Positions 1-9,753 of a stretch of 9,753 nt of DNA are shown in pieces. Origin of the DNA: a virus (Duplodnaviria; Heunggongvirae; Uroviricota; Caudoviricetes); IMG/VR virus record IMGVR_UViG_2734482541_000013, one strand, 5' to 3'. Position numbers and translations under genes: made by a program. The notes below the pieces were generated by a model. That model was not told the DNA's origin. It did no database searches and saw only the letters and a list, made by a program, of their open reading frames with translations. The stretch's first letter is position 1; each line of letters opens with the position of its first letter.

Positions 1-235
1 AGGGACAGCTGATAGAAACAGAAGCCACTGGAGCACCTCAAAAACACCATCATACACTAAATCAGTAAGTTGGCAGCATCACCCCGCCACAGAACAATTA
101 TTGCTTTTGCCGTTGATGACAATAAAGTTTTTATCGCAGGCGTATACCACGGTGGGCAAATCTATGAAACCGATTTTTTATCCAGTGCACCGTAAAACCC
201 CCATCCTTCAGGGCGTGGCGGATATCAAACTTTGG

Positions 236-1318
236 TCATTTTCTCTGGCTGATCTTTACCGGATAACCATCCCGAAGATCAATTAAGTGCTCCGGTTCAG
301 AAGCAAACCATGCATAAGATCCCCACGCCAATTCTGGTATTGCCTTTTTAAAAGGCAGAGCACTTCTGTCCATAAATGCCGTAAGGAATGCAAGATTTTT
401 CTCGCTGAACCCAGCGTCAATAGCCAAATGAGTGAGAGTAACTTTTCGTTCCCTGTTTATAGGCCCATCTGTCGCAACTACTTCAGTGAAAACTACAAGC
501 ATGTCCGAACCCGTTCGGTCCTCTCCCAAATCAATCAAAATAATATCTGGAAGTGCTTTTGAGGCATCAATATTCAGCCCCAATGCTTTTGCCAATACAT
601 CATCCTGAGCAACAACTTTATTCCCGGATTCAGACAACCAGAGCACAGTTGGATTCTTAAGAAAATTAGGAGCAAAAACTTCGATGACGGCCTTAGCTAT
701 TGTACTTGACGGGCCCGGAGCTAAAGTTCTCTTCTCTCCATTTGGGAAAGTGACGACTACGGCATCAGCAGCAATCACTGCCCCTGATTTCAATAAACGC
801 AACCTAGCAAGAGCGGCTTTGTTCAAATGATTTTCTTGCCAGGAACTTATTGCACTCAGCAGCGAATCTCCTTCAAGCCCGGCATCAAAGAGTGCTGCAA
901 AAGAGCGATTCAAACTGTAACGAGGACGAGAGGATGTGGTGGGTATACCTTTACGCTCAACAATTGCATTGCAAGGTATTAGGCCATTTTTTATAGTTTC
1001 ATCACGTATTGGCTCACGCGTATTTTCCGCATACCATGCATCAGCAGGCCTTATCTTTTGTTTAGAGAAAGTCATCTTTACCCAGCTTTCTCTGGACGCA
1101 TCATCAGTAAGAGCAGCCTGCGAATCTCCCATACTTACAACCTGGCTGGGCCTTATCCATCGCCCCAGCCCCTCAACCGCACCAGCATAAAACATGACAA
1201 AAATTGTTTTTGCAGCTATTTCCCGAATTAAATATCCACGATTCTCAGTCCCTTCAGGGAAAATTAATTGTAATCTTTCCCGGATAACATTCAATGGGGG
1301 AACAACAGGCAGATTCAT
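236..1318 (-). CDS. Putative restriction endonuclease or other effector partnered with the upstream methyltransferase (Type II R-M-like cassette); family unverified
   Basis: 360-aa ORF. Its ATG (1316-1318) overlaps the methyltransferase stop (1315-1317) as ATGA, implying translational coupling. Sampled 60-nt lines are about 35-43% GC versus about 52% in neighbouring phage genes. I could not place a PD-(D/E)xK motif with confidence; resemblance to BsuBI/PstI-family endonucleases is a tentative recollection only. Confidence 0.5.
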   Translation of the reverse strand: MNLPVVPPLNVIRERLQLIFPEGTENRGYLIREIAAKTIFVMFYAGAVEGLGRWIRPSQVVSMGDSQAALTDDASRESWVKMTFSKQKIRPADAWYAENTREPIRDETIKNGLIPCNAIVERKGIPTTSSRPRYSLNRSFAALFDAGLEGDSLLSAISSWQENHLNKAALARLRLLKSGAVIAADAVVVTFPNGEKRTLAPGPSSTIAKAVIEVFAPNFLKNPTVLWLSESGNKVVAQDDVLAKALGLNIDASKALPDIILIDLGEDRTGSDMLVVFTEVVATDGPINRERKVTLTHLAIDAGFSEKNLAFLTAFMDRSALPFKKAIPELAWGSYAWFASEPEHLIDLRDGYPVKISQRK

Positions 1319-3147
1319 GCAATCATCACTCCATAGAAACCAGCGATAGTTCTCTCAATAATCCGTCTGTGGACGCCAGCATCAATTAACGATTGAATCT
1401 CCATCACCTGCTCCAGAGAAGGCAACGGGATTGAATTCAATTCATAGGCCGAAACAGCAACACTTCCGCTTATACACCTGAACGCCCGATCGACAACATG
1501 CGAATTAAGTAGCATATCAATAACATCAGGGCGAACCGCAGAGAACAATCCGTTTGAATATACAATATTAATATGGTTTTCAACTACTACGCCACCAGTT
1601 TCATCTATAAATCCCTGAGGTAAAATTGCCGCTAAAATCCTTCTGTCCTGTTCCTTCGATGTTGTCCGCTGAACAAGCACACATTCAGATTTTGTCACAA
1701 GGAAACCCTGTTGTGGGGTTATATCGATATAGGGAACATGATTTTTTCTGTCTGCACTAAAACGAAAACCAGCTGAAGTTATTGATTCCGCCCAGACTAA
1801 TGGGTAGCTATTTTTTCCTTTCGTCGTACGCAACTGCGACTTAAATCGATTCCAGACTAACTGACCTGTAGAGACTGAGTATCCCAGATCAGCTAAACGC
1901 GTAGACATCTGTTTTAATACATTAAGAAAACAGGCATCATCTTTAACGCGTGGCAAAAGCCACGTTGCTCCACCTTTTTCTATATCAACATTACCTATTT
2001 TCTCAATTTTTGCTTTGTTCAACCCCTTAGGGACAAGTGAGGATACCTGGGCCCGAACTTTATGTTCTCCCGCCTTGAATGCTGTCAACATTGTTTCCTG
2101 GAGAACATCGTCAAAGACCCCATCCCTGTCAGTGACGAAATCAAGGGCATACGGAGTAGTTTTTTCGGTCAAAAGGGTTCGCAGCGCGGTGAAATACTGC
2201 CCACCAAGAAAAGAAGTTGGCGTAAGAAATGCAATAACTCCTGTTTTCTCTTTAACCATGCGAACAGCTAAGTCGGTGAACAATCCATATAGATTTGCAT
2301 GACCAAATAACGAACGAGAATATTTTTCTCTCGTTTTAATATCGAGAGTGACACGTCCGTAAGGCGGATTCCCTACCACAAGATCATAACCAGAAAATTT
2401 ATCTTGCTGAAGCGCATCAGCAACAATAATTGTATCTTCAGGCAATCTACGTTTTACCTTTACACATAGTGGCATTAGTACAGATTCGAGCAATACCAAA
2501 CTCATCCAAGCCGCAAATGGATCGATCTCTATCCCCTTTAAACGACGACTGATTCTCCTCAACATCCATTCAGGGGAAGACCCCTTGTCTTTTTTTAACA
2601 TTCGAATGGCTACTGGTGCCAAAAATGCACCGCCACCACACGCAGGATCAATAACCGATGCATGAGAAAAATCAACACCAGACTTTTCAGCCAGGTCCAA
2701 GAGACGCGCTACCAAAGGTGGGGGGGTATAGTAAGCCCCCAATTCCGAACGGTAAGCGGATGGCAGCATTACCGTATAAATTGACCCAATCAGATATCCA
2801 GCGTCCTCCGCCGGAAATTGAGCAATAAGCTCACCTGTTCGTTCAGCGAGCTCGCGTGCATCACATGGAATGTCTTCTATGTAAACAGTGTGCGGTACTG
2901 CCCTCATTTTAATGCTGCTTTTTTGCTTTTTTGCAAGGGTATCCCAATATGCAGCTACGATGCTGAAGCAGTATGAGCGGGCATGCATCAACCTTGACTG
3001 CCCGGTTTTGTAATTGCCCGCATAACCTTTGGCCATGGCTTTACAAGTTTGATATCTTTCCAGATTAGAAAACTCATTATCTGTAAAAAAATCAAAATGT
3101 TGCACATTCATAATGTAAAATCCTAATGTATCAAACATGCGGGCCAT
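1315..3147 (-). CDS. N6-adenine DNA methyltransferase, gamma-class (Eco57I/TaqI-like), with a C-terminal target-recognition region
   Basis: 610-aa ORF. Motif X-like GAYYTP at residues 137-142; SAM-binding motif I DPACGGGAF at residues 167-175 (nt 2626-2649); catalytic motif IV VVGNPPYG with NPPY at residues 260-263 (nt 2359-2370). Motif order X-I-IV followed by about 340 aa is typical of gamma-class amino-methyltransferases with a C-terminal TRD. Confidence 0.85.
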   Translation of the reverse strand: MARMFDTLGFYIMNVQHFDFFTDNEFSNLERYQTCKAMAKGYAGNYKTGQSRLMHARSYCFSIVAAYWDTLAKKQKSSIKMRAVPHTVYIEDIPCDARELAERTGELIAQFPAEDAGYLIGSIYTVMLPSAYRSELGAYYTPPPLVARLLDLAEKSGVDFSHASVIDPACGGGAFLAPVAIRMLKKDKGSSPEWMLRRISRRLKGIEIDPFAAWMSLVLLESVLMPLCVKVKRRLPEDTIIVADALQQDKFSGYDLVVGNPPYGRVTLDIKTREKYSRSLFGHANLYGLFTDLAVRMVKEKTGVIAFLTPTSFLGGQYFTALRTLLTEKTTPYALDFVTDRDGVFDDVLQETMLTAFKAGEHKVRAQVSSLVPKGLNKAKIEKIGNVDIEKGGATWLLPRVKDDACFLNVLKQMSTRLADLGYSVSTGQLVWNRFKSQLRTTKGKNSYPLVWAESITSAGFRFSADRKNHVPYIDITPQQGFLVTKSECVLVQRTTSKEQDRRILAAILPQGFIDETGGVVVENHINIVYSNGLFSAVRPDVIDMLLNSHVVDRAFRCISGSVAVSAYELNSIPLPSLEQVMEIQSLIDAGVHRRIIERTIAGFYGVMIA

Positions 3148-3361
3148 AACATCTCATGGTGGCGCATAGCAAACTGGCCCGAAGAATATCACGCACCAAG
3201 TCGATCTCATAACCCGTTATGACAATAAATCTTTGTAGCTGAACTCACTTGGTGATTTGTCAATCATTCCTGGCCTCCAGTTCGTCCTGAATCTCTTTAT
3301 CGAGTTCACCGTATTTGTTAGTCCTCATCACTCACGACTTGACTTCCAGAAATAACCTTGA

Positions 3362-3775: not shown

Positions 3776-4198
3776 TCACAGTACCGCCTCCTGAAAATCA
3801 CCCTGATAGAAAGCCGGTACACGCTGCATAACTTCACTCTTCCGGCACTCGCGACAGATTATGTTCTGATGTCTGTCGTAGCGGCGTATTTCTCCGTCCG
3901 GTAATGACCAGATAAGGTCCGGATCAACCACAGATGGTTTCTTCAGCTTTGCCCTCGAGAGTTTTTTGCGGGCGTTTTGCCAGTCCTTACGAGCCTGTTC
4001 AGACGGGAATAACCCGTAGCCAGAGTTGTATACATCCCCACTGGCAACCAGCTCTCTGGCGAGAACGCTTATTAAATATCTTGTCGCCCCGGTTTTAGCT
4101 TCCAGTTGTCGTAACGTCTCGCGCCCACTCTGGCGTACGAGTTCAACAACCTGCCCCTTAATTTTTTCCCGCTCTTCCTGTGTAAATACTTTTGCCAT
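3776..4198 (-). CDS. Hypothetical prophage protein
   Basis: 140 codons from ATG 4196-4198 (MAKVFTQEE...), with a G-rich stretch upstream. Lies 15 bp downstream of the preceding gene's stop, co-directional with the replication module. No motif recognised. Confidence 0.55.
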   Translation of the reverse strand: MAKVFTQEEREKIKGQVVELVRQSGRETLRQLEAKTGATRYLISVLARELVASGDVYNSGYGLFPSEQARKDWQNARKKLSRAKLKKPSVVDPDLIWSLPDGEIRRYDRHQNIICRECRKSEVMQRVPAFYQGDFQEAVL

Positions 4199-4213
4199 AA
4201 GCGCCCCCGGCAA

Positions 4214-4939
4214 TCACTTTTCCGACACAATACGACCGGAGGAATCGACAATCTGTCGAACAATATCCCGGTGCTTGTTCAGCTCCCGCAACGCGGCGCA
4301 GACACGCTCCCACTTCTGGACATGACTTTTCGCCCGACGCAGTTCGCGGTTTGCCATATGCAGCGATGGTAAAACCAGGTCATCCGCTTGCGTTTCGGTG
4401 AACGATGGCAACGACTGCACAATGTCCGCCACAGTTTCTGTTTTAATTTCTTCCTGTGTTGCAGCTTCCTGTACCGGTAACGCAACACCTGCTGGCTGAG
4501 GAAAGACTTTACCATCCGTTTCCGCTATGGATGCGGCTTTCGGCTCTGCCGGTAAATCAGCGCCCGGTATGCAGTACCGAAATTTACCGCCCTGATTCAC
4601 GCGAATCAGACGCCCTTTGCTGATTGCCATGGCCAGCGATGAATTCGCCCGGCGGGAGGTAATCCCGAACATCAGTGCCAGCTCATCCGCCGTTTGTGGG
4701 CCATGTTGTTCAATCGCCTCAGTCAGCATTTGCGCTGTCACTTTCGGTACCGGTGACACTGGTTCACTTTCACCAGCCTGAATCAGCCACCACATCGAAC
4801 CCTTGTTATCCGCTTCACCACGGCGCTTCAGTTTCCACAGTTCGTTGACCGCATCTTCACGGCTGATTCCAAGGCGGGACGCCACCACATGTGAAGAGGC
4901 TCTTTTCAGTGCTTTCAGTGCGTCAAATACAGTTTCCAT
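4214..4939 (-). CDS. Hypothetical prophage protein with two winged-helix-like segments
   Basis: ATG at 4937-4939 (METVFDALK...) is preceded by GGAGGA 7 nt upstream; the ORF track starts at an upstream TTG. Starts 21 bp after the DnaC-like stop. Two HTH-like stretches ([19 protein letters not shown] and [24 protein letters not shown]). Confidence 0.55.
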
Positions 4940-4960
4940 TAAAACATCCTCCAACAAAAA

Positions 4961-5556
4961 TTACTTCACAACTCCCGGAAAGCTGACATTTGAACGCCAG
5001 CTATCCCAGTTAAACGTCACCCACCGACAACCGTTCATGGTCATGCGGTCCATAATCCTCTCACCAAGAAGCGTGCTCATTGCGGCATGATTCAGGTTTG
5101 TTAACATCCCGACACTGCACAGTGATGCTGTCCGGCGATCAATTATCTGGTGCAATACCACCTGCTCGTTTTTCGTCTCCCGCTGAATGCCTATTTCATC
5201 CAGGACCAGCAAATCAACCCCGCAAAGCTCCTGTAAAAATTTTTCACCGGATTTGCCGTTGTCGTAGCTGTCATGCAACACGCTCATGACATCAGACTCG
5301 GTGACGATAATCACGCTGCGCCCCTTCGCCATCAGCCGGTTACCCATCGCCGCTGCAAGGTGATTTTTCCCGGTGCCGGTTTTACCGCTGAACACAAAAT
5401 TCGTGCACCCGGTCATCAGTTCGTCAGCTATGGATTTGGCCTGGCTCAGCGCGTATTTTTGCCCGTCGTTCTGCACCTGATAATTCGCAAACGAGCATTT
5501 GCTGTGCAGAGGCTGGATGCCCGAACGATTCAGGATTTTTTCCACCCGCAACTGGC
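4961..5556 (-). CDS. DnaC-like replicative helicase loader (AAA+ ATPase, IstB/DnaC family); N-terminus lost in the assembly gap
   Basis: Walker A GKTGTGKNHL, Walker B LLVLDEIG, and DnaC-type C-terminal signature WVTFNWDSWRS. The six-frame track fuses it to the upstream gene only because the N-run is a multiple of 3. Confidence 0.85.
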
Positions 5557-5847
5557 NNNNNNNNNNNNNNNNNNNNNNNNNNNNNNNNNNNNNNNNNNNN
5601 NNNNNNNNNNNNNNNNNNNNNNNNNNNNNNNNNNNNNNNNNNNNNNNNNNNNNNNNNNNNNNNNNNNNNNNNNNNNNNNNNNNNNNNNNNNNNNNNNNNN
5701 NNNNNNNNNNNNNNNNNNNNNNNNNNNNNNNNNNNNNNNNNNNNNNNNNNNNNNNNNNNNNNNNNNNNNNNNNNNNNNNNNNNNNNNNNNNNNNNNNNNN
5801 NNNNNNNNNNNNNNNNNNNNNNNNNNNNNNNNNNNNNNNNNNNNNNN
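5557..5847. other. Assembly gap (291 N)
   Basis: Uninterrupted run of n characters from 5557 to 5847. Confidence 0.99.
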
Positions 5848-6829
5848 GGAGCAACCAGGGGTTTTCAAAATTCCGGTCCGGCCCAAAAAACGTCGTCGCT
5901 CGCTGAACAAATTCCGTTCCCGCTTTCCCGGTCGCCGCCAGGTATCTCGCGTAACGCCTCACACCATCCAGCATGGTCTCTGGTGGCACCCCCTCGCGCA
6001 ATCTGGCCTTCCAGGCACTGAATGCGGATTTCTTCGGGTTTGCCCCGGCACGCAACGGGTATTCCCGCCAGACCTGTTCGAACACATCCGGATAATCCAC
6101 TCGTCCCACAGGCTGCCCGGTGTTTTCCGGGGCTACCCGATCGGCTTCCCGCTGAATGGCGGAATCGGCTTCAGGCTGCTGCAGTTGGAGTGATTGCTCC
6201 GGCCTTGCGGTCATCACCTGCTGCACAGCGCCCGAATCGGCTTTCAGCGCATACGCTGAATCGGCTTCCGGTGTCGAGCCTGCTGGCTGACCAGGATTGA
6301 CGGTCTGAACATCCCCTGCCTGGTTCGTGGCGTTTTTTACGCCATGGACCATAGTGTTTTGATCTTCTTTATCTGTATCTTTATCTGTATCTGTCGTGAC
6401 TCGTCGTGACATGTGCGTGACATTTCGTGACGCGCCGTGACAATCGCCATTTTGTTCCCGCTTTCTTTCCCTCTCTCGCTGCGCCCTCTTGCGCTCTGCA
6501 GGAGATTTTGCGGTTTGCGAAATATTGCCGTTGTCCTCTTTAAGCACCTGGCGTTTTTCCCATCCAGTGATTAAATCACCATCAAGTACCCGCCCCTGCA
6601 TCGTCTGCAAAATTGAATCAATTACCTCTTCTGTCACGTCGAGCGCACTTGCCAAATCTTCTGTCGTGACATCAATGTGACCTCGCGTGACATTTCGTGA
6701 CGCGCTCACCAGGAGGTGGATATACACTGCCATCACTGTTGCAATTGGCTGCCCTGACACCCTGGCAATTGTTCGCCACTTAGGGTCATTTGGCATGTCA
6801 TGCCATAATCTGAGCCAGGCGTTAGCCAT
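5848..6829 (-). CDS. Phage replication initiation protein, lambda O-like / YdaU-like; C-terminus lost in the assembly gap
   Basis: ATG at 6827-6829 with RBS AGAGGTGA upstream (a GTG at 6835 is an alternative start). Position immediately upstream of the DnaC-like gene, as in O-P / ydaU-ydaV arrangements. Acidic/basic low-complexity linker and internal iteron-like repeats. Confidence 0.7.
6366..6441. repeat. Iteron-like array 1: tandem 12-mer TCTTTATCTGTA x2, then five CGTGAC repeats at 10-11 bp phasing
   Basis: 12-mers at 6366-6377 and 6378-6389. CGTGAC at 6395, 6405, 6416, 6426 and 6436. An AT-rich stretch lies immediately upstream. Located inside the O-like coding sequence. Confidence 0.6.
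6633..6705. repeat. Iteron-like array 2: four (C/T)GTGAC repeats at 10-11 bp phasing plus one inverted copy
   Basis: CGTGAC at 6665, 6686 and 6696; TGTGAC at 6676; inverted GTCACG at 6633-6638. The 21-mer GCGTGACATTTCGTGACGCGC at 6685-6705 is identical to 6415-6435 in array 1. Confidence 0.6.
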
Positions 6830-6900
6830 ACTCACCTCTTCTGATACCGAATCTTTTTACTCACGAGTTGCCGGGAGCGATTCGATATGGCTATTGTCAG

Positions 6901-7326
6901 TCAATGTACTGCCACAGCATTTCCTGCCGGGCCACCACGGTTCATCTGATTGAAACCGGCGATTGCCACTGCGACAAAATCATCAGCGTCTCTCACCAGT
7001 CGTTCATGCGTCTCCACCAGTTCCCGAAAATAAGCTGAACTGTGGCTGCGCATTCGAGCCACCAGCGGAGGTGGCATTGCCCTTTCGATCGCAGGTAACA
7101 ACGCCTGAATTTTTTCAACAGCGTCAGGGGTGTCTTTATCCAGCCAACGGAAAATCTTTTGGGTGTTGAGATAAAGCGTGTTGTGCTTGCTGTCGTTATG
7201 CAGAACCGGAAACGTCATTCCCAGTTCGAAATAAACCCTGGTTATTTCAGCTGCCGGAACTTTTTCACCGTCCGGATGCGCCCAGGCTTTCATCGCCATG
7301 CGGATGTGTTCATGCTTGATTTTCAT
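6901..7326 (-). CDS. YdaT-like protein (Rac-prophage YdaT family; CII-position regulator / putative toxin)
   Basis: 141-aa ORF starting MKIKHEHI, which matches my recollection of the Rac YdaT N-terminus. Its ATG (7324-7326) overlaps the stop of the upstream cro-like gene as ATGA. Confidence 0.6.
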   Translation of the reverse strand: MKIKHEHIRMAMKAWAHPDGEKVPAAEITRVYFELGMTFPVLHNDSKHNTLYLNTQKIFRWLDKDTPDAVEKIQALLPAIERAMPPPLVARMRSHSSAYFRELVETHERLVRDADDFVAVAIAGFNQMNRGGPAGNAVAVH

Positions 7327-7586
7327 GAATCAACCCCCGCCGATGGTTGTGTGTTAGCCTGAAACTCAGCAGGCAAGCCGTCAGTTGGGTTGGGGTAGGT
7401 TTTACTGTCAATCTCATGTGGGGTCACCACCCATCCCGTTGCTTCACACCAACGTAATATTTTTTCTCCTGTAAGTTTTGCACGCCCCGTTATAACGTGG
7501 CTGACCATCCCTTGGGATGCGCCAACAATCTCAGCAAATGAACTCTGGGTTATATGAAAATGATGCAAATATTCTCCAAGATTCAT
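7323..7586 (-). CDS. Cro/YdaS-like helix-turn-helix DNA-binding protein
   Basis: HTH segment ITQSSFAEIVGASQGMVSHVITGRAKLT. ATG at 7584-7586; the six-frame ORF extends to a TTG at 7613. Divergent from the repressor gene across an operator-containing intergenic region. Confidence 0.65.
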   Translation of the reverse strand: MNLGEYLHHFHITQSSFAEIVGASQGMVSHVITGRAKLTGEKILRWCEATGWVVTPHEIDSKTYPNPTDGLPAEFQANTQPSAGVDS

Positions 7587-7622
7587 AATCCGCCCTATGT
7601 GATGTGTTACCAATGCATAATT

Positions 7623-7662
7623 AATAGCACTGTTATTTTTAAAAGTAAATAGTGATACTATT
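7623..7662. promoter_or_regulatory. OR-like divergent promoter/operator region: two 15-bp operator-like repeats
   Basis: AATAGCACTGTTATT (7623-7637) and AATAGTGATACTATT (7648-7662), 25 bp centre to centre, between the divergent repressor and cro-like genes. Each matches a copy in the downstream pair at 13/15. Confidence 0.45.
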
Positions 7663-7697
7663 TCAAAGTGATTAGCAATCTTATTAGAATTGGATGT

Positions 7698-8198
7698 ATG
7701 AAAAGAAAATCATTGTCAGACACCGACCTCAACGCCGCCAGAAGACTGAAAGAAATCTGGATGGCAAAGAAATCTCAGTTGGGATTGACTCAGGAACGTG
7801 CGGCGGAAATTATGGGGTTTTCAACACAAGGGGCGGTAAGTCACTACCTAAATGGTCAAACCCCACTAAACCTTGAGGCTGTTCTAAAGTTTGCTGGCTT
7901 ACTGAAAGTTCCCCCTGAGTCAATCAGGCCAGACATGGTAGATTTGCTGCAAATTGCAAGGATGTATTGTCGAGAACCACAGCAAGATAACATAGTCGCA
8001 TTACCAGCAGACACAGAACAAACAGAGGATGAACTACCGTTTGCCGTAGAGCCGATGGAACGAGATTTAATCCATACGTTCAGAGCTTTTCCGAAAGAAG
8101 ATCAAGAACACATGCTTCAGGAGATGAAAGATAAAAAAGAATCAATGGATCGTACGGTTGCGCGGTGGTTAGCTGCACAAAAAGGCCGTCGCGCCTAA
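7698..8198 (+). CDS. CI-like HTH transcriptional repressor (PaaR2-like regulator of the downstream toxin-antitoxin pair)
   Basis: XRE-type HTH LTQERAAEIMGFSTQGAVSHYLNGQ. ATG at 7698 is in frame with the 176-aa six-frame ORF, whose upstream part lacks an RBS. Followed 19 bp later by the antitoxin gene. Confidence 0.7.
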   Translation: MKRKSLSDTDLNAARRLKEIWMAKKSQLGLTQERAAEIMGFSTQGAVSHYLNGQTPLNLEAVLKFAGLLKVPPESIRPDMVDLLQIARMYCREPQQDNIVALPADTEQTEDELPFAVEPMERDLIHTFRAFPKEDQEHMLQEMKDKKESMDRTVARWLAAQKGRRA

Positions 8199-8217
8199 AT
8201 CAGAGGAGATATGTAAA

Positions 8218-8412
8218 ATGAGTACAGTCCTTTCCCCAATGGTTTCAGAATTTGAGACAGTTGAGCAAGAAAATAGTTACAACGAATGGCTGCGGGCCAA
8301 AGTAGCAGCAAGCCTCGCGGATCCCCGCCCGGCGATTCCGCATGATGAGGTAATGGCGGAAATGGAACAAATTATTGCCCAAATTGCTGCTGCAACTCAC
8401 AGAGGTGAATAA
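8218..8412 (+). CDS. paaA2: PaaA2-like antitoxin (partner of ParE-family toxin)
   Basis: RBS AGAGGAGA 8-9 nt upstream. The N-terminal 45 aa (SPMVSEFET.EQENSYNEWLRAKVA.SLADPRPAIPHDEV) match my recollection of E. coli O157 PaaA2; the C-terminal tail differs, so the paralog (PaaA1 vs PaaA2) is unresolved. Stop TAA overlaps the toxin ATG (TAATG). Confidence 0.75.
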   Translation: MSTVLSPMVSEFETVEQENSYNEWLRAKVAASLADPRPAIPHDEVMAEMEQIIAQIAAATHRGE

Positions 8413-8702
8413 TGTTACCCGTTTTATGGCTACCATCTGCTCGTGATGATTTGCGCCAGATCGTAGCCTACATAGCTAAAGAAAATCCCGCGGCAGCACG
8501 CAGAATGAAAATTCGAATTGAAACATCCGTTTTGCCGCTCACAGAGCATCCTTACCTGTATCCTCCAAGCGAGCGAGTTCTTGGTCTTCGTGAAATTGTA
8601 ACTCATCCTAACTACATCATCCTTTACCGAGTAACAGCATCAAGCATAGAAGTAGTAAATATTGTGCATTCTCGAAGACAGTATCCAGGCAAAAACAGTT
8701 AA
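8412..8702 (+). CDS. parE2: ParE/RelE-superfamily toxin (ParE2-like)
   Basis: 96-aa ORF, start overlapping the antitoxin stop. Size and sequence character (LPVLWLPSARDDLRQIVAYIAKENPAAA ... IILYRV ... IEVVNIVHSRR) fit ParE-family toxins; operon order regulator-antitoxin-toxin. Confidence 0.75.
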   Translation: MLPVLWLPSARDDLRQIVAYIAKENPAAARRMKIRIETSVLPLTEHPYLYPPSERVLGLREIVTHPNYIILYRVTASSIEVVNIVHSRRQYPGKNS

Positions 8703-8718
8703 TTATTCCCGCCGACAG

Positions 8719-8743
8719 AACCACCTTAGGGTGGTTTTTTCTT
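8719..8743 (+). terminator. Rho-independent terminator downstream of the toxin gene
   Basis: Stem AACCACC (8719-8725), loop TTAG, stem GGTGGTT (8730-8736), followed by a T-run (8735-8740) and CTT; 17 bp after the toxin stop codon. Confidence 0.65.
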
Positions 8744-8758
8744 GCCCCAACAAAAAAC

Positions 8759-8800
8759 AATAACGATGCTATTTACATCAAAAAAAATAATGATGCTATT
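8759..8800. promoter_or_regulatory. OL-like operator pair, probably overlapping an early-left promoter
   Basis: AATAACGATGCTATT (8759-8773) and AATAATGATGCTATT (8786-8800), a 14/15 direct repeat 27 bp apart, matching the repeats at 7623-7662. Confidence 0.45.
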
Positions 8801-8981
8801 GTTTCAGGCGTCAACCCACCCCGCCCCACAGAATGCAGGGCAATACTTCGAGTTACCAGACAGTGGTCAGGGGTTAAGTAGCCAGCCCGAGGCGTAAGAA
8901 CATGACGGCAGGGTTCAATCTTTAACTATGCAGCAGGTTTTTTGTTCCGCCACCCCGGCGTTAAGGGGAAATGAGGTCAGC

Positions 8982-9134
8982 ATGGATACTATCGATCTTG
9001 GCAACAACGAATCTCTGGTGTGCGGCGTGTTCCCTAACCAGGATGGAACGTTTACCGCCATGACGTATACCAAAAGCAAAACGTTTAAAACCGAATCTGG
9101 CGCGCGTTGCTGGTTAGCCAGAAACACTGACTGA
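8982..9134 (+). CDS. Small prophage protein, YdaF/YdfA-like (DUF1391-like)
   Basis: 50-aa ORF MDTIDLGNNESLV... with RBS GAGG 6 nt upstream of ATG 8982. The N-terminus matches my recollection of the small gene next to the repressor in Rac/Qin prophages; family name from memory, not verified. Confidence 0.5.
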   Translation: MDTIDLGNNESLVCGVFPNQDGTFTAMTYTKSKTFKTESGARCWLARNTD

Positions 9135-9511
9135 TGAGGCTGACGATGGAATTTAAAGATTTACCGTCTGATGTACAGAAAACAGCAGCTCATACATTGC
9201 ATTCTGTGCTGCGAGAAATCGGGAAAGATATTGCAAGCGAGCCAGCAAAAGATCTGGCCCGGAAAATCAAGACCGCTTTCGTTGAGCTTTATAATGTTGG
9301 CACTGACTCTGAAACTGTCGAGACCAAGACCGTAAGTTCACCAATATTCTCACTTGAGCCAAGCGTATTATCAGGTGAAATATGCACCGAGATTTCCAGC
9401 GAACTGCTTCCGGTAATACGAGAAGCAATTCGCCGTCGCGGTTTGGATGGAAGTTATGATCATGACGTTCTGCAAGTTCTCAGGACAATGGTGACTTCAC
9501 TGGGGATTTGA
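9134..9511 (+). CDS. Hypothetical prophage early protein
   Basis: ATG 9134 overlaps the previous stop (TGATG). An alternative ATG at 9146 (MEFKD...) has GAGG 8 nt upstream and may be the true start. No motif recognised. Confidence 0.5.
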   Translation: MRLTMEFKDLPSDVQKTAAHTLHSVLREIGKDIASEPAKDLARKIKTAFVELYNVGTDSETVETKTVSSPIFSLEPSVLSGEICTEISSELLPVIREAIRRRGLDGSYDHDVLQVLRTMVTSLGI

Positions 9512-9753
9512 TCCCTGCGTCCTCTAAGCTTTTGATATAGCGGTCCTCCAAGAAGCGGTAAATTTTGTCGAAATCATCTTTTCCCTCTGGTTTATTCAGA
9601 GGATTACAGGACCCGTAAGTAGCGGCATACATTTCAACCGTTTGGTAATGACTCCAACTTATTGATAGTGTTTTATGTTCAGATAATGCCCGATGACTTT
9701 GTCATGCAGCTCCACCGATTTTGAGAACGACAGCGACTTCCGTCCCAGCCGTG

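Follow-up and report, generated by a model that had tools for sequence, protein, structure and literature searches.

The window, a stretch of 9,753 nt, is a decayed, IS1-bounded lambdoid prophage remnant from the chromosome of Shigella sonnei. It carries a cassette of two minus-strand genes, which encode a gamma-class N6-adenine DNA methyltransferase and a restriction endonuclease (Table 1). The replication genes lie on one side of the cassette and the Q region on the other. In intact prophages, parE adjoins the cassette. In complete genomes, the IS1 transposase adjoins the endonuclease gene.

Table 1. Features of the cassette and its borders; positions refer to the window.
Feature	Position	Strand	Remarks
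End of IS1 copy that cuts off parE and the remainder of the prophage	1..83	.	100% match to IS1, many records
parE toxin gene, 3' remnant	85..195	+	36 codons and stop; left edge of the cassette slot
Restriction endonuclease gene, 360 aa	236..1318	-	BsuBI/PstI/SdaI family; Pfam, PADLOC, SdaI sequence and fold matches
ATGA stop/start overlap, 4 nt	1315..1318	-	methyltransferase TGA with endonuclease ATG; read directly
N6-adenine DNA methyltransferase gene, gamma class	1315..3147	-	longest ORF 610 aa; Pfam and PADLOC matches
Motif IV NPPY, catalytic	2359..2370	-	methyltransferase aa 260
Motif I DPACGGGAF, SAM binding	2623..2649	-	methyltransferase aa 167
Motif X GAYYTP	2722..2739	-	methyltransferase aa 137
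Upstream region carried along with the cassette; putative promoter/leader	3112..3270	-	DNA homology with other cassettes

The methyltransferase motifs follow the order X-I-IV and precede a C-terminal target-recognition region, which is the order of the gamma class. The protein contains the Eco57I methylase domain (PF07669; E = 1.7e-13, 51.4 bits against a cutoff of 25.3) and the N6_Mtase domain (PF02384; E = 2.1e-9, 37.6 bits against a cutoff of 20.4), and the PADLOC model MTase_II PDLC03338 aligns with residues 7-608 (E = 1.8e-300). Residues 285-588 align with the target-recognition portion of TIGR02987, and also with the Stx-phage PstI-type methyltransferase; M.TaqI is the best solved relative. 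The true start codon is probably M13 at window position 3111, which yields a protein of 598 aa, rather than 3147, because this is the exact point at which DNA homology with a Serratia cassette sets in, and because gene callers predict the 598-aa version in several genomes.

The second gene encodes an endonuclease of the SdaI/PstI/BsuBI type, composed of an N-terminal HTH DNA-binding domain (residues 10-172; PF17728, E = 1.2e-30, 106.6 bits, cutoff 27) and a C-terminal catalytic domain of the PD-(D/E)XK type (residues 188-349; PF06616, E = 9.3e-45, 152.2 bits, cutoff 27). The latter match covers 152 of 154 profile positions. Furthermore, the PADLOC model REase_II PDLC03589 aligns with residues 3-351 of 360 (E = 2.8e-128), and phmmer aligns SdaI (2ixs_A) with residues 96-349 (E = 1.8e-16). 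A Foldseek search of the PDB with the AF2 model of the endonuclease (pLDDT 78.8) gives the same SdaI structure, aligned over its full length, as the sole match with E < 0.001 (E = 5.2e-15, probability 1.00, 370 aligned columns). The columns P257 D258 ... E279 x V281 ... G285 P286 are invariant across the subfamily and also occur in the Stx2a-phage PstI-type enzyme, and P257-D258 and E279, invariant in 52 subfamily members, are common to this enzyme and SdaI. P257-D258 and E279 supply the family-invariant acidic residues of the nuclease core (PD ... E-x-V/K), which have a predicted role in catalysis. The lysine of the SdaI E-x-x-K motif is replaced in the cassette protein (E279-V-V-A282). As this lysine is also missing in the Stx-phage PstI-type enzyme, its loss alone is no argument for inactivity.

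The two genes meet in the overlap that is read on the minus strand as ...attgcATGAatctg. In all 80 related loci from other species, the methyltransferase gene is located directly upstream of the endonuclease gene on the same strand, and the two overlap by 4 nt in 27 and by 1 nt in 25 of these loci (together 52/80). The initial annotation had described a gamma-class N6-adenine methyltransferase with GAYYTP, DPACGGGAF and NPPY motifs that is coupled by ATGA to a 360-aa protein, and had left open whether the pair is a Type II restriction-modification (RM) system or a methyltransferase with a different effector. All three motifs could be located, the Pfam matches are above cutoff, and the overlap at 1315-1318 is confirmed from the sequence. 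The open question is answered by the profile searches that had been proposed for both proteins: they return the Eco57I and N6_Mtase methylase domains and PADLOC MTase_II for the methyltransferase, and a BsuBI/PstI/SdaI-family Type II restriction endonuclease rather than an unusual effector for its partner. We conclude, with a probability of roughly 0.9, that the cassette is a classical orthodox Type II RM operon and accessory cargo of the lambdoid prophage remnant in S. sonnei.

The names attached to the methyltransferase might suggest a different system. The best Pfam match is named 'Eco57I', RefSeq uses 'HsdM family', and NCBIfam gives weak matches to PglX and MAD2, so that the protein could be read as a Type IIG/Eco57I-like, Type I HsdM, BREX PglX or MADS methyltransferase, with the 360-aa protein as an unrelated neighbour. 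The probability of this reading is close to nil, as the NCBIfam scores of 16-79 bits are far under the cutoffs of 353-900 bits, and the 360-aa protein is a genuine Type II endonuclease that is paired with the methyltransferase throughout the related loci. Each of the systems was also rejected individually. For Type IIG, the 610-aa protein has no nuclease domain, the Pfam Eco57I model covers the methylase domain only, and similarity to the PADLOC REase_MTase_IIG models is confined to the methylase core (E = 1e-9 to 1e-12). For Type I, neither hsdS nor hsdR is present in the window or in complete genomes, and Type I methyltransferase models reach E ~1e-9. BREX PglX and MADS MAD2 score 16-37 bits against cutoffs of 400-900, and no BREX or MADS genes are found nearby.

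In a Type II RM operon of this kind, the methyltransferase would be made first and would modify an adenine within a short recognition site, probably a palindrome, in the DNA of both host and prophage. Translation of the endonuclease would be coupled to that of the methyltransferase, and the enzyme would cut incoming DNA without this mark. This would shield the lysogen from other phages and from plasmids. As a by-product, loss of the cassette would be costly, which would help the remnant to persist.

Comparison with other prophages supports the view that the cassette represents an accessory ('moron') unit in a variable prophage slot. Related prophages without the cassette at the same slot keep the flanks, and homology breaks at ~182-196 and ~3347. 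Conversely, a ~3 kb unit (~231-3270) is present in different prophage types of other genera. Close cassettes occupy accessory slots of lambdoid prophages in E. coli, Kluyvera and Citrobacter, which in Kluyvera and Citrobacter is the nin-like region, and in Serratia a close cassette is located in a P2-like prophage between gpA and the portal gene. The methyltransferase-endonuclease pair is also found on Burkholderia glumae plasmids. In a repeat search, the cassette lacked flanking repeats, direct or inverted, of the kind expected for a transposon-like unit. The initial annotation was correct in placing the cassette in the replication/nin-equivalent region of a prophage, and the comparison with cassette-free prophages that it had suggested reveals the common flanks and the two breaks. 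Its proposal of a horizontally acquired defence insertion is supported by the cassette-free relatives and by the presence of the ~3 kb unit in other prophage types. It had also described the cassette as AT-rich, with 35-43% GC against roughly 52% in the flanking genes, and this holds in part. The GC content of the cassette (236-3361) is 43.6% (60-nt lines: median 44%, range 27-57%) and is lower than that of the replication block at 3776-7326 (52.8%; Mann-Whitney p = 4e-11), and GC3 is 0.36-0.37 as compared to 0.51-0.65 in the replication genes. However, the figure of 35-43% is slightly too low, and 'AT-rich' is somewhat overstated because just 42% of the 60-nt lines of the cassette fall within this range. 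Moreover, the immunity/toxin-antitoxin region at 7327-9753 has 45.0% GC (p = 0.37 versus the cassette) and orf137 next to the cassette has 44.9%. Hence, the low GC content is weak evidence if taken alone, because other accessory modules of the same prophage are low in GC as well.

No fewer than 1000 public contigs carry the identical proteins, which are named from S. sonnei and listed in 4192 index blocks. Their public names are "BsuBI/PstI family type II restriction endonuclease" and "N-6 DNA methylase", and in RefSeq the former stands beside an adenine methyltransferase with the 'HsdM family' product name; annotation of the cassette as a Type II RM system is already known from public databases. 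A megablast search of a phage collection detected no deposited phage genome with the cassette, and tblastn matches of the endonuclease are limited to EcoGIII-type relatives with <60% identity. A literature search by the RefSeq accessions of both proteins (WP_001053102.1 and WP_000113425.1) returned nothing, and searches on BsuBI, EcoGIII, the S. sonnei methylome and CTGCAG methylomes returned just the Stx-phage EcoGIII system and unrelated organisms. In the searchable literature, including S. sonnei and CTGCAG methylomes, no activity data were found for the 360-aa/598-aa subfamily.

The DNA upstream of the operon is a candidate promoter/leader region. Homology with other cassettes extends to 3270 in Kluyvera and to 3220 in Citrobacter, and the region includes a 14-bp palindrome without mismatches (CATAACGGGTTATG, 3208-3221) as well as an extended -10-like element (TGATATTCT, 3183-3191). 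Since a strict scan for sigma-70 consensus promoters and terminators gave no convincing site in the 214-bp upstream spacer, we can only infer expression of the cassette in the lysogen. Control by a C protein was rejected: the operon strand between 3148 and 3361 contains no small HTH controller ORF of the C-protein type, and residues 1-142 of the methyltransferase match no Pfam domain at E-values up to 10. The lack of a strong consensus promoter, together with the IS1 truncation of the prophage and the loss of its late genes, would be compatible with a genetic relic, in which at least one of the two enzymes is inactive or not expressed in S. sonnei and the cassette is simply carried along by a prophage in decay. 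We regard this as quite improbable because both ORFs are full length, match the family models end to end and keep all subfamily-invariant residues. In addition, the identical proteins persist across the public contigs, from which adjacent genes of the prophage have disappeared, and an intact endonuclease next to a dead methyltransferase would kill the cell if it were expressed. One long-read assembly (L009) has a split methyltransferase gene beside an intact endonuclease gene, and other genes of the locus are split too; the methyltransferase split is probably a sequencing error.

An active Type II RM operon might also serve the prophage or its host in other ways. M.EcoGIII on Stx2 prophages was reported to affect the expression of ~1,900 E. 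coli genes (PMC6602927), which provides a precedent for an epigenetic regulator of host genes. Alternatively, the cassette might act as an addiction module that stabilises the remnant. Its retention in a remnant with two flanking ParE-type toxin-antitoxin modules is compatible with selection for stabilising functions. That either of these, and not defence, is the main role seems unlikely: both would be consequences of an active Type II RM system and not alternatives to it, and the repeated placement in accessory slots of different prophage types fits defence cargo.

To our knowledge, every characterised member of the BsuBI/PstI/SdaI family recognises a site with a CTGCAG core. Because of this shared core, and because the YAxN(T/S)RExxR segment of the endonuclease is common to SdaI and the Stx-phage PstI-type enzyme, our best guess for the recognition sequence is CTGCAG or a site with that core, at slightly less than even odds. 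The window contains two CTGCAG sites (6179 and 6496), neither of them inside the cassette, a count of no diagnostic value. With just 26-27% identity to the characterised CTGCAG enzymes, the cassette system could differ in specificity. We tentatively consider that the 360-aa/598-aa lineage forms a separate branch of the PstI/SdaI fold, maybe with a non-CTGCAG site and hence a new Type II specificity, with the odds leaning against it. If so, a new specificity would be fixed in S. sonnei, where it would give the methylome of a pathogen an m6A motif that has gone unrecognised and would hinder the uptake of phages and plasmids, and it may explain the retention of the IS1-truncated prophage fragment.

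The assignment to standard Type II RM removes the possibility of an unusual effector. In S. sonnei, the cassette is likely to form a chromosomal restriction barrier throughout the clone and to give rise to an m6A motif, which is relevant for transformation efficiency, the host range in phage therapy and nanopore basecalling. It provides a further example of RM cassettes that move between accessory slots of lambdoid and P2-like prophages.

Among known systems, EcoGIII of Stx2 prophages was shown to act on CTGCAG, both as methylase and as nuclease, and to restrict lambda-like phages (PMC6602927, PMC3893438). Like the cassette, it is prophage-borne, with the methyltransferase gene first, the endonuclease gene second and both overlapping on the same strand, and it combines an Eco57I-type gamma N6-adenine methyltransferase with a BsuBI/PstI endonuclease. 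EcoGIII is carried by Stx2a prophages of E. coli O104:H4, O145, O111 and O103. The two systems share only 26% identity in the methyltransferase and 26-27% in the endonuclease, the EcoGIII proteins are shorter (489 and 317 aa versus 598/610 and 360 aa), and different PADLOC models apply (PDLC03227/03420 versus PDLC03338/03589). EcoGIII adjoins cI, whereas the cassette is bordered by the replication genes and the Q region. PstI and BsuBI, the founders of PF06616/PF17728, resemble the cassette endonuclease in their Pfam domains and their N6-adenine methyltransferase partner, while the cassette protein belongs to a distant subfamily whose N-terminal region is longer. SdaI (CCTGCA/GG; 2IXS) is the only solved relative and has the same two-domain architecture of HTH and nuclease. 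Yet, it shares just 21% identity and retains the lysine that is replaced in the cassette protein. The endonuclease model reaches a low global TM-score against SdaI (0.39-0.44), as would be expected if the two domains are oriented differently to each other in the model. Both cassette proteins match the halves of PADLOC PDLC03359 (fused, ~840 aa; methyltransferase E = 2e-27, endonuclease E = 1.7e-13), which we take to be the YenI-type fused methyltransferase-endonuclease polypeptide. Hence, the same two modules can be fused into a single polypeptide, whereas in the cassette they are encoded by separate, translationally coupled genes. The CTGCAG system of Pseudomonas syringae pv. actinidiae presumably represents the short PstI type and not the cassette subfamily, because it spans 2.42 kb. 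Finally, the setting of the cassette is the expected one: the accessory (anti-phage) slots of temperate phages, both the lambdoid nin-like and the P2 gpA-portal position, house relatives of the cassette in four genera.

The cassette at 236-3361 is predicted to be an orthodox Type II restriction-modification (RM) operon, in which a PstI/BsuBI/SdaI-family endonuclease is paired with a gamma-class m6A methyltransferase. The BsuBI/PstI restriction endonuclease family has two domains, PF17728 and PF06616, and the 360-aa protein contains both (E 1.2e-30 and E 9.3e-45, respectively), each well over the Pfam cutoff. Its residues 3-351 match the Type II REase model of PADLOC (E 2.8e-128), and it aligns with the sequence of the SdaI crystal structure (E 1.8e-16). 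Moreover, the only significant PDB match of an AlphaFold2 model (52 homologues as input, mean pLDDT 78.8) is SdaI (2IXS), over the full length (Foldseek E 5e-15, probability 1.00). Therefore, the 360-aa partner is a restriction endonuclease and no other effector. P257-D258 and E279 do not vary within the endonuclease subfamily and also occur in SdaI and in the Stx2a-phage PstI-type enzyme; the lysine of the SdaI E-x-x-K is kept neither in the endonuclease nor in the Stx-phage enzyme. The initial annotation had left undecided whether the system is classical Type II or employs a different effector. The endonuclease family matches decide for the former, and the profile searches it proposed place both proteins in Type II RM families (Pfam, PADLOC).

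The methyltransferase scores above the Pfam thresholds for both the Eco57I-type methylase domain and N6_Mtase, is covered end to end by a Type II methyltransferase model of PADLOC (aa 7-608, E 1.8e-300), and has M.TaqI as its best solved relative. Its NCBIfam scores for BREX PglX, MADS MAD2 and the Alw26I/Eco31I family fall far short of the respective cutoffs. The three motifs first read by eye are all present, and their order, X-I-IV, is that of gamma-class N6-adenine methyltransferases. The proposed ATGA coupling is likewise seen: the two ORFs are co-directional, the minus-strand junction reads ...attgcATGAatctg, and the methyltransferase stop TGA and the endonuclease ATG share the four bases 1315-1318. 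The true methyltransferase is probably 598 aa long, starting at 3111, and the annotated 610-aa start (3147) wrong, because coding conservation in an alignment of cassette upstream regions starts at M13 (ATG at 3111) and gene calls in several genomes give 598 aa. A Shine-Dalgarno-like AGGA precedes this ATG. A domain search detected no domain at the methyltransferase N-terminus.

Features of the cassette and of the window ends
Feature	Position	Strand	Basis
IS1, left end	1-83		sequence match
parE toxin gene remnant, truncated by left IS1	85-195		
Endonuclease ORF, 360 aa	236..1318	-	ORF listing
Methyltransferase ORF, 610 aa as annotated	1315..3147	-	ORF listing
Motif GAYYTP	aa 137 of methyltransferase		direct reading
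Motif DPACGGGAF	aa 167 of methyltransferase		direct reading
Motif NPPY	aa 260 of methyltransferase		direct reading
TGATATTCT element, after palindrome	3183-3191		upstream region of cassette
Perfect 14-bp palindrome CATAACGGGTTATG	3208-3221		upstream region of cassette
IS1, right end	9644-9753		sequence match

Two conserved endonuclease peptides, searched against a single genome of each species, yielded 342 relatives. Among the best 80, every locus has a methyltransferase gene directly upstream in the same orientation (80/80), and in 78 it is of the window's type (42-67% identical). Stop and start overlap by 4 nt in 27 of the 80 loci and by 1 nt in 25, with most others within a few bases, and plasmids of Burkholderia glumae also carry the pair. 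Thus, this cassette lineage has conserved an arrangement with the methyltransferase first and the endonuclease, translationally coupled to it, second; such an order would match the usual logic of modification before restriction. In the remaining two loci, the methyltransferase is shorter, falls under the PADLOC model that also covers the PstI-type methyltransferase of Stx2a phages, and is 31-32% identical to the latter. They come from a beta-proteobacterial MAG (L035, 2410-5071) and a Desulfurivibrio MAG (L037, 2407-5059), where endonucleases of the window's 360-aa subfamily (56-60% identical) stand beside methyltransferases of 511-525 aa, not ~600 aa. This pairing suggests either that the two lineages have swapped partners or that they have a common specificity.

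The cassette belongs to the mobile accessory cargo of temperate phages and is fixed in a Shigella sonnei prophage remnant. The same cassette occurs in two of 5426 complete E. coli genomes (99.3-99.9% identity), both times in a full-length lambdoid prophage between the gene of the 118-aa phage protein (phrog_1621) and a ParD-ParE pair, after which come DUF968, RusA and Q. The RefSeq names of the two E. coli proteins are 'BsuBI/PstI family type II restriction endonuclease' and 'HsdM family class I SAM-dependent methyltransferase'. Since RefSeq already annotates these genes and full-length PADLOC models cover them, the cassette is known already and does not count as a new finding. Related prophages without the cassette, a comparison suggested in the initial annotation, keep the flanks and have a few small ORFs at the slot; homology breaks at ~182-196 on the left and ~3347 on the right. 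Base composition is a real but weak argument for insertion. The cassette has indeed a lower GC content than the replication genes (43.6% vs. 52.8% for 3776-7326; Mann-Whitney p = 4e-11 on 60-nt lines; GC3 0.36-0.37 vs. 0.51-0.65), but the 35-43% band first given for it holds only 42% of its 60-nt lines, and GC is equally low in the immunity/toxin-antitoxin region 7327-9753 (45.0%) and the neighbouring orf137 (44.9%).

In other genera, too, the closest relatives occupy accessory slots of prophages. In a lambdoid prophage of Kluyvera (endonuclease 89% identical), replication genes lie on one side of the cassette and DinI/RusA/DUF968 on the other; in Citrobacter (86%), it lies past DUF977/Ea22 and ahead of a RecA-like gene and DUF968. 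The Serratia marcescens cassette (75%; L099, 5208-8083) belongs to a P2-like prophage, where it separates gpA, the replication gene, from the portal gene; the RM unit therefore moves between lambdoid and P2-like accessory slots. DNA similarity covers window positions 231-3270 for Kluyvera (81%), 276-3220 for Citrobacter (79%) and 244-3111 for Serratia (67%), so that the travelling unit consists of both genes and some 110-160 bp of upstream DNA. Within this upstream region, CATAACGGGTTATG and TGATATTCT are conserved in three enterobacterial cassettes, Kluyvera and Citrobacter among them, and could possibly represent an operator and an extended -10, respectively. A strict consensus scan found no promoter in the region, no regulator for the palindrome was identified, and a controller (C) gene is absent from the ORF listing. 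At the other end, 176-228 (53 nt, the parE end and the spacer ahead of the endonuclease stop) has an 89% match between genes at an unrelated position of a different E. coli prophage (L006, 476-527) and is perhaps one of the short 'boundary' sequences at which lambdoid mosaics recombine.

The exact cassette proteins are named from S. sonnei in public sources and occur in at least 1000 contigs (4192 index blocks list them). Left and right of its N run, the window is 100% identical to the 4.8-Mb chromosome CP104423.1. Complete genomes have IS1 next after the endonuclease gene, with chromosomal genes beyond it (mannitol dehydrogenase family, YdfZ, GntR regulator, short-chain dehydrogenase, peptidase M3); thus all that lay past parE has been lost, and the prophage is a remnant. 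In these genomes, the left IS1 joins the remnant directly to chromosomal ydf-region genes. The window is a typical IS-bounded S. sonnei draft contig. Upstream, the same strand encodes a Cro-like HTH protein, YdaT, an O-like replisome organiser, a DnaC/IstB-like loader, DUF1627, DUF977 and the phage protein phrog_1621 (118/137 aa). Organiser and loader are separated by 291 N (5557-5847), and the 624-aa ORF 4961-6835 is an artefact across it, fusing the 354-aa organiser and 248-aa loader of complete genomes. Inside the O-like gene, two ~47-nt stretches 270 nt apart (6390-6435 and 6660-6705, ~85% identical) may represent iterons of an origin or encode a repeat within the protein. A three-gene module at 7668-8702(+) encodes an HTH_3 regulator (176 aa), a PaaA2 antitoxin (64 aa) and a ParE toxin (96 aa, ATGA-type overlap), an arrangement that resembles the three-component PaaR-PaaA-ParE toxin-antitoxin systems of E. 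coli O157:H7. Because it occupies the expected place of the prophage repressor, its HTH_3 protein may double as immunity repressor. In one long-read S. sonnei assembly (L009, 6209-8004), the methyltransferase is split (133 + 428 aa) beside an intact endonuclease, probably by assembly error since several other genes of the locus are also split; a genuine methyltransferase-negative, endonuclease-positive state would be informative.

To our knowledge, all characterised family members (PstI, BsuBI, EcoGIII, YenI, SdaI/SbfI) share a CTGCAG core. The segment Y96-A97-x-N-T-R101-E102-x-x-R105 is conserved among the endonuclease, SdaI and the Stx-phage PstI-type enzyme, and the shorter EcoGIII-like partners in L035 and L037 hint weakly at the same core. 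On these grounds, CTGCAG or a site containing it is our tentative guess for the recognition sequence, at slightly under even odds, and another specificity is quite possible given the 26-27% identity to the endonuclease of the Stx2a-phage EcoGIII copies.

EcoGIII, a PstI-like RM system carried by Stx2a prophages, methylates CTGCAG, cuts the same site and confers protection from lambda-like phages (PMC3893438, PMC6602927). It is the nearest described system in the ecological setting of the cassette. Searches of phage collections found no deposited phage genome with the cassette's endonuclease subfamily, and PHROGs holds EcoGIII-type families but none for this subfamily. The cassette proteins are homologous to the copies in Stx2a-phage genomes but only distantly related, the methyltransferase with 26% identity over 355 aa; they are longer and match other PADLOC models. 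Furthermore, the Stx2a-phage system adjoins cI in phage ArgO145, whereas the cassette occupies a different place in the phage map.
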